DNA of 12,807 bases, taken from UHGV virus genome UHGV-1674620; one strand, given 5' to 3'. Of the stretch, positions 1-7,406 are shown one piece after another (the first letter of the stretch is position 1; each line of letters opens with the position of its first letter). This DNA is from a virus. A model generated the notes under the pieces. That model saw only the letters and a program-made list of their open reading frames with translations, made no database searches and was not told where the DNA came from. The position numbers and the translations under genes are program-made.

Positions 1-77
1 CTAATCGCCTGATGCTTTCTTTTTCAGCAACGGGAAAGCAACAACCACCACACCCACCAGCCGCCCATTTACCACAA

Positions 78-103
78 ATAAAAAAGCCTTCACTGCGGAA
101 GGC
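78..103 (-). terminator. Putative rho-independent terminator
   Basis: Minus strand reads GCCTTC-CGCAGT-GAAGGC followed by TTTTTT (plus 80..85 is AAAAAA); the stem overlaps the TGA stop (92..90) of the upstream small ORF. Confidence 0.4.
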
Positions 104-287
104 GTCTGTAACAACCGAACTGATAGTCTGCCAGACCCGCCATAACCAGCTGGGTCAGTATTAACTGGCAGCGTTCGCGTGAAAGGTAAGTATTCTGCGC
201 AATCTCCCCGACTGTCGCCGGTTCGGTGGCACTTAATTCATTAAACACCACTCTGGCGGTTTCTGTCATATCCTGCTGTTTTAGCAT
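90..287 (-). CDS. Hypothetical small protein, about 65 aa from the second ATG (open frame extends to 311); not hydrophobic, so not holin-like
   Basis: Track ORF 90..311. The ATG at 287 is preceded by AAGGGA about 7 nt upstream; the ATG at 311 has no Shine-Dalgarno. A terminator hairpin sits at the stop. Confidence 0.4.
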   Translation of the reverse strand: MLKQQDMTETARVVFNELSATEPATVGEIAQNTYLSRERCQLILTQLVMAGLADYQFGCYRRLPQ

Positions 288-407
288 GTCTTTTTCCCTT
301 CTGGTTAACATGACATACCAATAACTCTTGTCTAAAAAGCCAGCAAGATAAAAAGTCAGTATTCACGACCACCAGCGTGTTTACTGTACTGCACCAAGTT
401 TACAGGT

Positions 408-434
408 ACAAAAAACCCGCTCAGTGGCGGGTTT
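408..434 (-). terminator. Rho-independent terminator downstream of the accessory gene 564..1181
   Basis: Perfect 8-bp stem AAACCCGC/GCGGGTTT (416..420 and 427..431 core) with a 6-nt loop; on the minus strand it is followed by TTTTTTG (plus 410..415 is AAAAAA). Confidence 0.5.
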
Positions 435-563
435 AAGTTGTGTGGCGAAGTAACCACTCTTAACACACTAATAGCATTTTTGTTATAACACAAGTAGCTC
501 ATTCAGTATTTTTAGAATCTTGACTTTCTTAAGCACGGCGAACTCTGAATACCAAACATAAAA

Positions 564-1181
564 TCAATTATCTTCCAGGCCGGATGCTATCAACGAAAGC
601 CTCTCAAAAAACGCTGTAGCAGCCTTGTCCAAAGTTGAATAAGTACTGTATTCTCCGTGTTCGGGACCAACCACTACCCATGGTCGTCTTTTTGGGATTC
701 GGGACTTCTCAGAAATCACTGTTCCAGATATACCAATATCAATTGTTACACCTGTTATTATTTTCTCTTCATCTCTTTCCCTGAACTCAATTGCCATAAA
801 TGCCGTTTTTTTTCGTTTCCCGTTTTTAAAAAAATCAAATAAAGCAAAGCGATGCTCATTAAAATCAACACCCCATCGTCCTTCAGGATAAAGGGCATGA
901 AAGTTGTCATTTACGCTCTGCATCGTCTCATAAGCTTTAACTTCTAAATCTCCATAGTGCATAGATATCGCGCAGGAGTCACTGGGTAACTGTATTTTCC
1001 CAAGATTGAAAACCTTTACTGCTCCAGAACTATGGCATCTTGCCCGCAATTTATCCCCATTTATACTAATCGGAGAAATATTCCTTAATGTTCCGGGCTG
1101 GCTCCCTCCTAAGTAAACGACTGTTAAAGATTGCTTATTTTCAATTGCATCAACTAATACATGCTCTACATTTTTATCCAT
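564..1181 (-). CDS. Hypothetical accessory (moron) protein, 205 aa from MDKNVEH; N-terminal region loosely resembles a WYL-type ligand-binding domain; AT-rich
   Basis: Track ORF 564..1208. The internal ATG at 1181 has GGGAGG 5 nt upstream, whereas the ATG at 1208 is preceded by CCTCC and no Shine-Dalgarno. Visibly lower GC than flanking phage genes. Lies directly downstream of the Q-like gene and has its own terminator. Segment VVYLGGSQPGTLRNISPISINGDKLRARC...AVKVFNLGKI recalls the WYL pattern Y..R.I.P...L.A.C...F.L..I (from memory, weak). Confidence 0.55.
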   Translation of the reverse strand: MDKNVEHVLVDAIENKQSLTVVYLGGSQPGTLRNISPISINGDKLRARCHSSGAVKVFNLGKIQLPSDSCAISMHYGDLEVKAYETMQSVNDNFHALYPEGRWGVDFNEHRFALFDFFKNGKRKKTAFMAIEFRERDEEKIITGVTIDIGISGTVISEKSRIPKRRPWVVVGPEHGEYSTYSTLDKAATAFFERLSLIASGLEDN

Positions 1182-1256
1182 AATAACCTCCCAATGAACA
1201 GGTATCATCAGGAGGTTATAATAAAATATGATTATTTACTTTGATTGAATTTATTA

Positions 1257-1628
1257 CTATATGTAACAATCAATTTCTAAAGATACCCCCAACATTGCCA
1301 GACAACCGTCAATAAACCCTTCAGCTTTCTGCAGTCTGATAACAACCTGATTAAGTGATATCCCCAGTTTTACCCCCAACACCCGTAATGTAACCCCATA
1401 CACATAATACATTTCCAGTAATTCGTATTGATACGGTTCCTTTTTCTTAAGAACTGTCATCGCAGAGCTAATGATCAAGCCATCGTCATCGCTACATTGC
1501 GGGCGGGATTTTACTTTCGAAGGAATTAATCCCTTAAAACCTGCAGCAACAGATGACCATTCCACATCCTCGTGATTATTTGCCACCCATGCCCCCCAAC
1601 GTTCAAGAACCATTTGAATATCACGCAT
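1257..1628 (-). CDS. Phage late-gene antiterminator Q (Q-like, short approx. 123-aa form resembling DLP12 QuuD)
   Basis: N-terminal MRDIQMVLERWGAWVANNHEDV...AAGFKGLI...KVKSRPQC matches my memory of short Q antiterminators of E. coli defective prophages. ATG at 1628 has GGAGA 6 nt upstream; the track start at 1643 is a TTG. Position after the nin-like genes is as expected. Confidence 0.75.
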   Translation of the reverse strand: MRDIQMVLERWGAWVANNHEDVEWSSVAAGFKGLIPSKVKSRPQCSDDDGLIISSAMTVLKKKEPYQYELLEMYYVYGVTLRVLGVKLGISLNQVVIRLQKAEGFIDGCLAMLGVSLEIDCYI

Positions 1629-1645
1629 CAACTTTCTCCACAAAA

Positions 1646-2641
1646 TCAGGCCAGCACGCCTATTGCCAGCGCACGATCGATAAAACGAAATATCAGCTCC
1701 AGCTGGGAGCCATACTTCTCTTCAAATGCCACGGTATCCGCATGCAGCTCGTCGTGATGCTTTCTGCACAAAGGCAGCACGAAGAGGTCATGCGCTTTTG
1801 TACCCATTCCCCCCTGACCGTGGCCTATCAGGTGGTGGGGATCATCAGCAGGCTTTCCACAACATGCACACGGCTGCGTCTTAACCCAGCGCGTGTACTT
1901 TTCGTTAACCCAGCGGCGACGTTTTGGGCGTAACATAAAAGACTCCGGCGACTCCGGATCCACTTTCAGCGCCAGCACCTTTTTCGCTTTATTCTGGATG
2001 ATGCTGGTGGCCGGAACCGAAGGCACAAGGTCACTCTCCCGGGTGACAGACGGCACAACAGGCTTCGGTAATCTCAGTGCCTTACGGGCTGCACTTTCCG
2101 GTAAGGCATCCGCCAGATCATTACGAACCAGCCACCAGCACAGTTCCGGCATTGTCACAACGTGACTGTCATCAAAACCGAGATCCCGACGCACAACAGA
2201 CAACACCCAGCGGGCACAGTTATCCGTTGCCATTGATTCCAGCCGTTCCGTGAACTGATCGCGCAGCTGGTTATCGCAGTGCCAGCACAGACGGATTGCG
2301 CCCGGCGCGTGTCGCATTGTGGTCATGTTCTCGCTGTGCCAGTCGGAATGAGGCCACTGGCAACCTTTTTCACGAAGTAACCAGCTTTCAAGACATTCCA
2401 CGCCACCAGCACGACGGATCACTGCCTCATTGCGGAACACGGCCCGAACGGCAGGATCATCCGCCAGCGGTTGTGATGCCGCCGGAACGGCACCACTGGC
2501 GAAAGATGAATAACGCTCCGGCTCAGGCTCCAGCAGGACACGCCCCTGCATAAACAGGGGCATCAGCTCTGAACCTGGCCTGAACAATACGATCCCCATA
2601 CGCGGGGCAATTTCAGGGGTCAGTAGTGCTCTCACAGTCAC
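1646..2641 (-). CDS. DUF968-type phage protein with C-terminal Cys/His (HNH or zinc-finger-like) motif
   Basis: C-terminal CACCGKPADDPHHLIGHGQGGMGTKAHDLFVLPLCRKHHDELH (C-x2-C, HH, C, HH-x3-H) as in nin-region DUF968 proteins of E. coli prophages (from memory). Start is GTG at 2641 or 2635; stop abuts the Q-like start. Confidence 0.65.
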   Translation of the reverse strand: MTVRALLTPEIAPRMGIVLFRPGSELMPLFMQGRVLLEPEPERYSSFASGAVPAASQPLADDPAVRAVFRNEAVIRRAGGVECLESWLLREKGCQWPHSDWHSENMTTMRHAPGAIRLCWHCDNQLRDQFTERLESMATDNCARWVLSVVRRDLGFDDSHVVTMPELCWWLVRNDLADALPESAARKALRLPKPVVPSVTRESDLVPSVPATSIIQNKAKKVLALKVDPESPESFMLRPKRRRWVNEKYTRWVKTQPCACCGKPADDPHHLIGHGQGGMGTKAHDLFVLPLCRKHHDELHADTVAFEEKYGSQLELIFRFIDRALAIGVLA

Positions 2642-6040: not shown

Positions 6041-6261
6041 GCCACACCTCCCAGACGCTTAAACATTTTTCCGGAGCAAAAGGCTATAAGCGGCATACTG
6101 ATGCGGTAATTACGGCCCAGCGGTTCACAAATCACCTTCTGACATTCACGGTCAACCAGGCTGACACGTAGAACATGCCCTGCAGGCGTGGTGTACCACT
6201 GACCAGGACGAGGACAACGGAAAGTCTGATTGGTAAACCGTTTGAAAATATTCCGGATCAT
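6037..6261 (-). CDS. Hypothetical phage protein, 74 aa, four Cys
   Basis: Track ORF; ATG at 6261 overlaps the Rha-ORF stop (ATGA) and is preceded by a G-rich Shine-Dalgarno; its stop overlaps the next gene's GTG. Confidence 0.4.
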   Translation of the reverse strand: MIRNIFKRFTNQTFRCPRPGQWYTTPAGHVLRVSLVDRECQKVICEPLGRNYRISMPLIAFCSGKMFKRLGGVA

Positions 6262-7406
6262 TTGCGCCCCCTTACCTCTGAAGGGTTCAGCGACAAATTT
6301 ATGAGACTGGCCAGTAGCGCCGCGTCGTTGATGCGGTCATACAGACTTACAGCCAGCGGTGATTCGGCTTTTGCCAACATGGGATAAAGCTGCTGCAGCC
6401 AGACCTGATGAATTGATGAAATGTAGGAATAGAGAACGCTGGCGTTATGTGCAACGTCGCTCAGTACAGAGGGATTTGAAAGCTGTTTCTCCATCTGGTT
6501 AAAGGCATTGATGTATGCCTCTTTGAACTGGGCAGCACGTTTACCCGTGAAACCCATAGCAAGAAACGCAAAGCCGTCGCGGGTTATTTGATAGCAAGGT
6601 AGTTTGCGGCCTGTGCAATCGGTGTAATCACTCACCGAAAAATTGCGGGAAGTGAATGATGCAGAGCATTCAAGCGTGCGGATCTTTTTCAGTACATCGT
6701 CATGACGTTTGGAGAAGAAGTTGGCAACAGCCAGGGATGAAGTAACAGCCTGACCATCAACGATGGCAATTTCAGGTTGAGTGAGGGTTGGGATCGTAGC
6801 CATGATGGCAGCCTCCGTTGACTGTGGAAAACTTCCACCACCGGAGCTGCGAAACTCACTGGTGGCAGACTGAACAGGGTTCGCAGTACCGGCGTCAACG
6901 GAGACCGGCGAGCCTTTCGGCTCCCCTGCCCAGCCCACCATAATTCTGGCGTGCGTGAGCGCGGACGATAAAAAAGACGCTGGCGCGTCATATATCGCCG
7001 TTGACAATTCCGGGCTGCGACCCCCGGCACCCGCTTTATAAGGTGCCTGAGCAGTGTAACGTCCCGGAATTGCAGAATCAATATGCTGGTGGTCCTTCAC
7101 ACTCAACAAAATCACGCCTGAATTTCCACAAAGGACTAAAGCACTCATGCGGGTAGTCTTTGCGAAGATAGATAACGCGCTGTGTTTCTGGCTCCCAACG
7201 AATAACATGAACATAAAGTCCTCTTCCGTCACGAAACCAGCGGTTAAGTTCCTGCACAACTCGCCCCCCACAGTCAGGTAAAGTTCTCTGTGGTTACTTA
7301 CAGCCAGGTGATTTGGTAATCTGCATTCATGCCGTAACAACAGGTGTTCAGCGACGCTGACCACCAGCTGTTGCGACAAACGGTTATTTGCCGTTAAACT
7401 ATTCAT
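6258..7406 (-). CDS. Rha-family phage regulatory protein; the Rha domain is the C-terminal 181 aa (internal start at 6803), preceded by about 200 in-frame codons of unknown function
   Basis: MATIPTLTQPEIAIVDGQAVTSSLAVANFFSKRHDDVLKKIRTLEC is the characteristic Rha N-terminal signature (TSL.VA..F.KRHD.VL..I). The ATG at 6803 has GGAGG 8 nt upstream. The frame stays open upstream to an ATG at 7406 that overlaps the cII-like stop (ATGA). Confidence 0.6.
   Translation of the reverse strand: MNSLTANNRLSQQLVVSVAEHLLLRHECRLPNHLAVSNHRELYLTVGGELCRNLTAGFVTEEDFMFMLFVGSQKHSALSIFAKTTRMSALVLCGNSGVILLSVKDHQHIDSAIPGRYTAQAPYKAGAGGRSPELSTAIYDAPASFLSSALTHARIMVGWAGEPKGSPVSVDAGTANPVQSATSEFRSSGGGSFPQSTEAAIMATIPTLTQPEIAIVDGQAVTSSLAVANFFSKRHDDVLKKIRTLECSASFTSRNFSVSDYTDCTGRKLPCYQITRDGFAFLAMGFTGKRAAQFKEAYINAFNQMEKQLSNPSVLSDVAHNASVLYSYISSIHQVWLQQLYPMLAKAESPLAVSLYDRINDAALLASLINLSLNPSEVRGRK

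Follow-up and report, generated by a model that had tools for sequence, protein, structure and literature searches.

A stand-alone WYL-type protein without a helix-turn-helix domain, encoded beside the antiterminator gene Q of a lambdoid prophage

Introduction

Transcription factors that activate DNA-damage responses and anti-phage systems, including CBASS and BREX, are known to sense their ligands through WYL domains. What is a WYL-like protein without a DNA-binding domain doing directly behind the late antiterminator gene Q of a lambdoid prophage, and when would it be produced? The question is raised by a gene located at positions 564..1181 (minus strand) of UHGV virus genome UHGV-1674620; the whole stretch of DNA analyzed, 12,807 nucleotides in length, is referred to below as the window. 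The solid part of the answer is that the gene (hereafter, the WYL gene) encodes a stand-alone sensor-type WYL protein lacking the helix-turn-helix (HTH) domain and is a mobile accessory gene, placed, in our reading, before the late promoter. Some copies of the protein are already labelled 'WYL domain-containing protein' in RefSeq, and the family is already present in PHROGs. The new part is the combination of a WYL sensor lacking both HTH and WCX domains with a novel domain, encoded in an unusual slot between Q and the Q-binding element (QBE).

The Gene and Its Translation Signals

The reading frame of 205 codons starts with the ATG at 1181 on the minus strand and ends with the stop codon at 564–566, as given by the list of open reading frames (ORFs) and its translation. 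It follows the PF06530 antiterminator gene Q at a distance of 75 nt, just downstream of Q, as a preliminary description of this DNA had stated. The identical 618-nt coding sequence is present in RefSeq (WP_000360285.1), copies of which are named either 'hypothetical protein' or 'WYL domain-containing protein'. An alternative in-frame ATG at 1208 would give a protein of 214 residues but is not preceded by a Shine–Dalgarno sequence.

Compared with a variant of 73% identity (locus L074), the ratio of nonsynonymous to synonymous substitution rates (dN/dS) was 0.22 at a dS of 0.83; for the N-terminal (WYL) domain alone, it was 0.15. Because of these values and the existence of 955 clusters of homologues, the frame is a genuine gene under purifying selection. 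Intact copies were found in 47 of the 50 E. coli-type IMG/VR loci. The remaining three loci (L048, L078, and L079, of about 50) are disrupted: in L048, an insertion of approximately 780 bp separates Q from the WYL gene; in L078, the insertion lies within the WYL gene, leaving only residues 79–205 contiguous; and in L079, the gene is frameshifted or truncated.

The G+C content of the WYL gene was 39.5% (32% at third codon positions), below both the 48% of the window and the 56.5% of the DUF968 gene. The lower G+C content noted in the preliminary description was thus real but not confined to this gene: the AT-rich block, approximately 300..1500, also takes in the 3′ two-thirds of Q (39.4% G+C) and both intergenic regions.

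The strong Shine–Dalgarno sequence reported earlier, GGAGG, was found at 1187..1191 (minus strand), 5 nt before the start codon; it is, however, buried in an RNA hairpin of 15 bp (1183..1219, minus strand), the 3′ arm of which holds the Shine–Dalgarno sequence and the 5′ arm the complementary CCUCC (minimum free energy −23.4 kcal/mol, z-score −2.85). An equivalent occluding hairpin (−19.4 kcal/mol) precedes the 73%-identical variant in L074. Conservation of the hairpin suggests that translation of the WYL gene may be restrained or conditional.

Domain Organization of the Protein

Codons 1–65 (987..1181, minus strand) encode a WYL-like ligand-binding domain, consisting of a helix followed by a five-stranded Sm/SH3-like barrel and superposable on solved WYL domains. 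The N-terminal domain thus has the WYL fold. The Pfam profile WYL (PF13280) gave 16.5 bits (E 0.0086), which is below its gathering threshold of 21.8 bits. Of the checks proposed earlier, the fold comparison was positive and the Pfam score remained under the cut-off. A profile built from 98 sequences of the family matched the WYL domain of DriD at E 1.2e-4 and matched BrxR at E 3e-3. In the profile alignment, residues Y23, S27, and R33 of the motif Y23-x-G-G-S27-x-P-G-x-x-R33 fall on Tyr168, Ser172, and Arg178 of DriD, which hydrogen-bond the phosphates of single-stranded DNA (ssDNA; PMC9186387). Over the 98 homologues, these residues were conserved in 99, 91, and 100% of the sequences, respectively. 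The domain is basic, with an isoelectric point of about 9.1–9.4. A trailing motif, K56-x-F58-x-x-x-K62-I63, was also conserved in the family and resembles R-x-F-x-x-x-R-I, with which WYL domains end in the Pfam consensus.

No HTH domain was detected by Pfam in the protein or in the homologues examined, including N-terminally extended ones; the protein begins at the WYL domain. Without a winged HTH (wHTH) domain, it therefore cannot be a DNA-bound repressor or activator. This distinguishes the family members examined from the regulators of wHTH-WYL-WCX architecture (DriD, CapW, BrxR, and PafBC), as do a C-terminal domain that is not WCX and the sub-threshold Pfam WYL score. The loop motif Y-x-G-G-S-x-P-G-x-x-R, including three residues aligned with ssDNA-phosphate contacts, is shared with DriD, and an association with defence loci is shared with these regulators as a group. 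The accessory protein WYL1 of Cas13d has a ribbon-helix-helix domain and the Cas13d effector as a partner, whereas the present family has neither a ribbon-helix-helix domain nor a conserved neighbour.

Codons 87–205 (567..923, minus strand) encode an alpha-beta5-alpha domain with a lineage-specific insert at approximately residues 134–167. Modelled alone from 37 sequences, this domain gave a pLDDT (predicted local distance difference test score) of 85.8 and was composed of a helix, three strands, the variable insert, two strands, and a helix. The conserved residues were G/W103, K119, N120, G121, K125, P167, W168, A187, and F191; no Asp, Glu, His, Ser, or Cys position—acidic, histidine, or nucleophile—was conserved in the family alignment. 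Comparison of the model with BFVD gave nothing below E 0.03. The C-terminal domain is a conserved alpha/beta domain with no known structural relative and no conserved catalytic residues, probably a binding or oligomerization module rather than an enzyme. Its interpretation as a WCX dimerization domain was considered and rejected. Alpha/beta sandwiches of the frataxin/CyaY and PsiB types resemble it at the fold level only (8–13% identity) and have no functional residues in common with it, which is not evidence of homology. The earlier reading of a WYL-like N-terminus without an HTH partner, followed by an unrecognized C-terminus, was thus borne out by the profile match to DriD, the WYL fold, and the absence of HTH and WCX domains.

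Position Relative to the Late Promoter and Terminator

In the canonical cassette, Q is directly followed by the late promoter pR′, a sigma-dependent pause element, and a terminator (10.1101/651190), and in phage 21 the QBE is located between the −35 and −10 elements of pR′ (PMC6606751). By comparison with related phages, the putative pR′ of this Q lineage, with its QBE, was placed at 465..493 (minus strand), past the end of the WYL gene; it comprises TTGTGT (493–488), the 10-bp palindrome TGTTATAACA (490–481), and TAGTGT (470–465). The segment 435..464 (minus strand; GTTAAGAGTGGTTACTTCGCCACACAACTT), aligned with 1720a-02 and PhiR40_1, two phages lacking the WYL gene, would be the initial transcribed region of pR′. 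An intrinsic terminator was found at 410..434 (minus strand) by its fold, a stem AAACCCGC/GCGGGTTT followed by a T-run, and is best read as the backbone terminator tR′.

Homology between the window and 1720a-02 restarts at position 482, just 20 bp past the Q stop codon of that phage. For PhiR40_1, it restarts at 465, behind an unrelated reverse-oriented ORF, and for SfV, which has a Q of a different family, at 433, the annotated terminator site of SfV. A terminator after Q is annotated in SfV at the corresponding site and is common to SfV, 1720a-02, and PhiR40_1. In all three Q21-family phages, a hexamer xAxxxT directly precedes the shared segment running from GTTAAGAGTGG to the terminator, and the sequences upstream of the hexamer diverge. 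The 73%-identical variant of the WYL gene lies behind a Q of 85% identity, and 27 nt past its stop codon the same block was found (TTGTGTTATAACAAAAA-N6-TA-N4-GTTAAGAxTGG...terminator). The part TTGTGTTATAACAAAAA-N6-TA-N4-GTTAAGA is thus retained behind the gene in this diverged Q lineage; it differs in phages with other Q alleles. The WYL gene would accordingly be located between Q and the cognate pR′-tR′ of Q, upstream of the late promoter.

The palindrome TGTTATAACA is perfect, is followed by an A-run, lies between the putative −35 and −10 elements, and is kept in the diverged Q lineage (L074, 8649–8665). At its place, other inverted repeats are present in 1720a-02 and PhiR40_1, likewise with an A-run. 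The palindrome and its counterpart repeats may be Q-allele-specific binding elements; phage 21, in contrast, uses a direct repeat.

A gene located before pR′ is not part of the late operon; most simply, it is the last gene of the delayed-early pR transcript. Comparative placement thus makes transcription of the WYL gene at the end of the delayed-early pR operon, on induction, the most likely arrangement. No sigma-70 promoter-like site was found at the scan threshold upstream of the gene start, and inspection of 1182..1330 by eye revealed only weak hexamers. The single terminator downstream lies 130 nt away, past the putative pR′. The arrangement of a moron, with its own promoter upstream and its own terminator immediately downstream, was therefore not found, nor, by comparative placement, was that of Stx-type late-operon cargo, which lies downstream of both pR′ and tR′.

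These results bear on the reading given in the preliminary description, namely cargo or a virulence effector driven by the late promoter, with its own terminator, in a slot of the Stx/porin type. Such a reading is prompted by the position adjoining Q, the AT-richness, and the terminator downstream. A terminator is indeed present where one had been proposed (408..434), but it is not dedicated to the WYL gene: judging by the alignments, the terminator and the approximately 30 nt before it are shared backbone sequence, found in phages lacking the gene. Likewise, 1463 E. coli genomes match some part of 300..1300, and only 51 of them match at least 80% of it. The lineage-specific promoter block, together with the shared initial transcript and terminator, lies downstream of the WYL gene, which speaks against expression from the late promoter. 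The stx of Stx phages is likewise variable cargo near Q; in 1720a-02, however, it is located downstream of the segment read as pR′-tR′, two further genes beyond, whereas the WYL gene stands between Q and that cassette, so the analogy with the Stx/porin slot does not hold. No secretion signal, toxin domain, or enzymatic domain was found in the protein, and nothing else points to a virulence effector. Late-promoter-driven virulence cargo is not supported by these data and is scarcely credible here.

An unrelated reverse-oriented ORF of 148 residues, with no Pfam match, occupies the interval between Q and pR′ in PhiR40_1 (L001, 3323–3769, minus strand). Given its presence in the same interval, the stretch between Q and its promoter seems, from these sequences, to be a recurrent cargo slot. 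On the plus strand, positions 306–442, antisense to the tR′ region, gave a sub-threshold Rfam match to the Salmonella small RNA STnc130 (30.1 bits, gathering score 55, E 0.053); the Rfam scan of 1..2000 gave sub-threshold matches only.

Linkage with the Q Allele and Mobility of the Cassette

The antiterminator gene Q (1257..1643, minus strand; PF06530, E 1.5e-47) belongs to the Q21/933W family and is a distinct allele co-inherited with the WYL gene. The closest Q among 50,697 phage records was at most 65% identical to it. The 3′ 304 nt of the allele were found at an identity of at least 99% in 52 of 5426 complete E. coli genomes, and the WYL gene with its flanks in 51. In all 47 IMG/VR loci with a near-identical gene, this Q precedes the gene and the same promoter/terminator segment follows it; coverage of the flanking 3 kb on each side varied from 0 to 100%. 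Since variable flanks surround a constant cassette, the cassette moves as a unit between prophage backbones. The WYL gene is a horizontally mobile accessory gene beside Q, in support of the earlier description of it as accessory. The mosaic segment of low G+C content, composed of the 3′ part of Q, the WYL gene, and the promoter block, was delimited to 483..1470 (minus strand) by homology breakpoints at 1470–1580 and 465–482, by G+C content, and by the variable flanks. Related phages with other Q alleles (1720a-02, PhiR40_1, and SfV) lack the WYL gene.

The nearly 1:1 linkage is explained by the position of the gene inside a co-adapted Q-to-QBE cassette; in the simplest reading, the gene is lodged between Q and its cognate QBE, and recombination cannot separate them without breaking the late switch. 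Such lodging could by itself preserve a functionless hitchhiker, and the linkage (51 versus 52 genomes) and the few disrupted copies (L048, L078, and L079) would fit this. The dN/dS of 0.22 overall and 0.15 in the WYL domain, the intact state of 47 of the 50 E. coli-type copies, and nearly a thousand homologue clusters that keep the same invariant residues make a neutral passenger very unlikely.

The linkage could also reflect a role within the phage itself, the protein acting as an ssDNA- or RNA-binding accessory factor for replication, recombination, or the late switch, for example, in timing Q action or read-through at pR′. This would account for the constant position of the gene between Q and the site on which Q acts, and it agrees with the association with a single Q lineage that exists in two diverged forms (Q 85% and WYL gene 73% identical, with similar dS values of 0.77 and 0.83), with the Sm/Hfq-like character of the WYL fold, and with the putative hairpin control of translation. 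Most homologues, however, occupy unrelated positions with no adjacent Q, related phages with other Q alleles do without the gene, and the linkage is more simply explained by trapping between Q and its cognate QBE. We consider a phage-internal role unlikely, although less so than neutral hitchhiking; both are less likely than a role in conflict.

Family and Genomic Contexts

When 1.84 billion representatives were searched by profile, the homologue clusters numbered 955 at E ≤ 1e-3, of which 607 reached E ≤ 1e-10; almost all are 190–205 residues long and match end to end. The protein matched PHROG 8498 ('unknown function') at E 4.3e-126, with residues 1–205 on profile positions 1–205. No system model of PADLOC-DB v2 was matched, the only hits, at E 1.4e-3 and 6.3e-3, being weak and to generic Cas-associated WYL models, and NCBIfam gave nothing meaningful. 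The protein, which could not be placed in the preliminary description, thus belongs to no family of known function by either PHROGs or PADLOC. Among the 50,697 phage records, close homologues were absent and two distant ones were present. The literature searched contained neither a mention of the accession nor an account of an HTH-less phage WYL protein.

Some homologues had variant architectures: C-terminal zinc ribbons and transmembrane segments, a tandem WYL domain, or a C-terminal extension of approximately 170 residues. The N-terminal extensions of some others appeared, by eye, to be single transmembrane anchors. The 170-residue extension (phrog_31886, positions ~200–370) is conserved and was found in PY3 gp2 (L006, 2006–3115), P0068, and P0194. 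It had no match in PDB or Pfam, nor, in PY3 gp2 and P0068, in annotated PHROGs, and is therefore a second uncharacterized domain.

About 20 genomic contexts were inspected by neighbourhood, and no neighbour family recurred among 13 diverse loci; a '138-aa neighbour' that seemed to recur consisted of unrelated proteins outside a single phage group. In marine prophages of the YfdP/YfdQ type, the homologue lies directly downstream of a CI-type repressor gene or tail-to-tail with it, and in Pseudoalteromonas phage PY3 it carries the extra domain as a fusion and is flanked by the integrase and a LexA-like repressor. Other positions were behind tail-fibre genes and beside Rha, upstream of terminase, and beside integrase. 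Two homologues were found in chromosomal defence islands. One adjoins Mrr-nSTAND3 and an SMC-like ATPase. The other belongs to a compact island of a metagenome-assembled genome of Leucothrix mucor (L024, 673–7425), which encodes an OLD-like AAA_15 ATPase (PADLOC NsnB), an FRG-domain protein, GmrSD_N, and a RiboL-PSP HEPN protein, followed by the WYL-family protein, a glyoxalase, and a NERD nuclease with a zinc ribbon. The family is thus large, uncharacterized, and composed of two-domain proteins of about 200 residues, found mainly in prophages, other mobile elements, and defence islands.

The placement of the marine homologues beside CI-type repressors is like that of lambda rexAB. No sequence or structural relation to RexA/B was found, and in the present E. 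coli prophage the gene lies instead at the far end of the pR operon.

Possible Function

The homologues located beside repressors and inside defence islands favour defence or exclusion. A defence or abortive-infection role, suggested already in the preliminary description, is plausible on this neighbourhood evidence. Our most likely single reading, which we hold tentatively, is a non-enzymatic conflict protein sensing ssDNA or another nucleic acid and serving in defence or exclusion. According to this proposal, the ligand bound by the WYL loop would be a short piece of ssDNA, a different nucleic acid, or a nucleotide. The protein would work stoichiometrically through its C-terminal domain, by oligomerization or partner binding, and not by regulating transcription or by catalysis. 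It would take part in phage–phage or phage–host conflict, with a single-gene sensor for exclusion or abortive-type defence as the likeliest form. In the prophage studied here, it would be transcribed as the last delayed-early pR gene on induction, its translation being throttled by the hairpin over the ribosome-binding site.

Several observations weigh against this proposal. The Pfam WYL score was below the gathering threshold in all six homologues tested (five gave sub-threshold matches, the best of 20.0 bits). One of the four loop contacts of DriD, Arg176, has no conserved counterpart, its place being taken here by Thr31. The tripeptide that gives WYL domains their name corresponds by position to L45-R46-A47, of which only A47 is conserved; DriD is also degenerate here (NYL). 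The protein has no effector-like domain and no PADLOC system model. The promoter pR′ was assigned by comparison, and its −35 and −10 hexamers are weak (3/6 each). A defence gene has to be expressed in the lysogen, and such expression is not evident here, as no sigma-70 promoter was found upstream at the scan threshold. Finally, one homologue is encoded by a 209-kb cyanophage, which fits a benefit in the lytic cycle better than defence of a lysogen.

The main alternative is a counter-defence decoy. A sensor-only WYL protein could soak up the ssDNA (or nucleotide) alarm cue during lytic growth, so that host repressors of the wHTH-WYL-WCX type (CapW and BrxR) would be kept on their operators or DNA-damage signalling would be blunted. 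A small, non-enzymatic protein that lacks HTH and keeps the ssDNA-contact loop would suit this purpose, as would a gene placed in a delayed-early operon and lacking an evident separate promoter, and the occurrence of a homologue in a large cyanophage; moreover, sensing of ssDNA or of restricted infection is known for WYL repressors of the host (PMC11662680; PMC13622015). Homologues in chromosomal defence islands speak against a decoy, however, and the apparent membrane anchor of some homologues would be needless for a cytosolic sponge. Q-distal expression would also come late for the suppression of an early defence, and no such decoy has been reported in the literature searched. We regard the decoy as possible but considerably less probable than the defence or exclusion sensor.

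Genomic Surroundings

Read on the minus strand, the window represents the early-right arm of a lambdoid prophage of the SfV/CPS-53-like kind. CI (S24 peptidase plus HTH) is encoded on the plus strand; after it come cro, cII (CP76), an Ash/Rha gene, replication genes, a Dam-type methylase, RusA, KilA-N, DUF968, Q, and the WYL gene. In E. coli E189, the same prophage continues past the window edge with a small winged-helix gene, a DNA methyltransferase, holin, lysin, and head genes.

The first gene after tR′ (90..311, minus strand) encodes a small winged-helix protein of 67–73 residues similar to SfV orf47 (PHROG 331, phrog_331, E 2e-37; weak TrmB/MarR matches) and is kept across many lambdoid prophages as the first late gene. 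It was considered as a split HTH partner of the WYL protein and rejected: it lies past the terminator and is present in phages lacking the WYL gene. By these sequence comparisons, it is a backbone gene, not a partner.

The Ash/Rha gene (6258–7406, minus strand) encodes an early protein of 382 residues, in which Ash (PF10554) and Rha (PF09669) follow approximately 115 N-terminal residues that gave no match.

Significance

The locus is a warning against treating each Q-adjacent gene as late-promoter cargo. Insertion behind Q but ahead of the late promoter that Q serves, as read here, shifts the time at which the cargo is expected to be expressed and ties it to a single Q allele.

At the level of the family, the protein may be the founding example of about 1000 clusters of sensor-only WYL proteins. 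These would be either an ssDNA-triggered single-gene exclusion or abortive system, some members of which are apparently membrane-anchored, or a phage sponge for an ssDNA or nucleotide alarm, with inheritance enforced in E. coli by a co-adapted antiterminator/target-site cassette; as a whole, this proposal is attractive but doubtful. In the proteins described here, the sensor stands apart from DNA-binding domains and is coupled to a novel, probably non-catalytic domain, and this widespread architecture is found in prophage immunity regions, moron slots, and defence islands. The identity of its ligand and partner would show either that ssDNA sensing can drive immunity directly, without transcription, or that phages can mute that signal.
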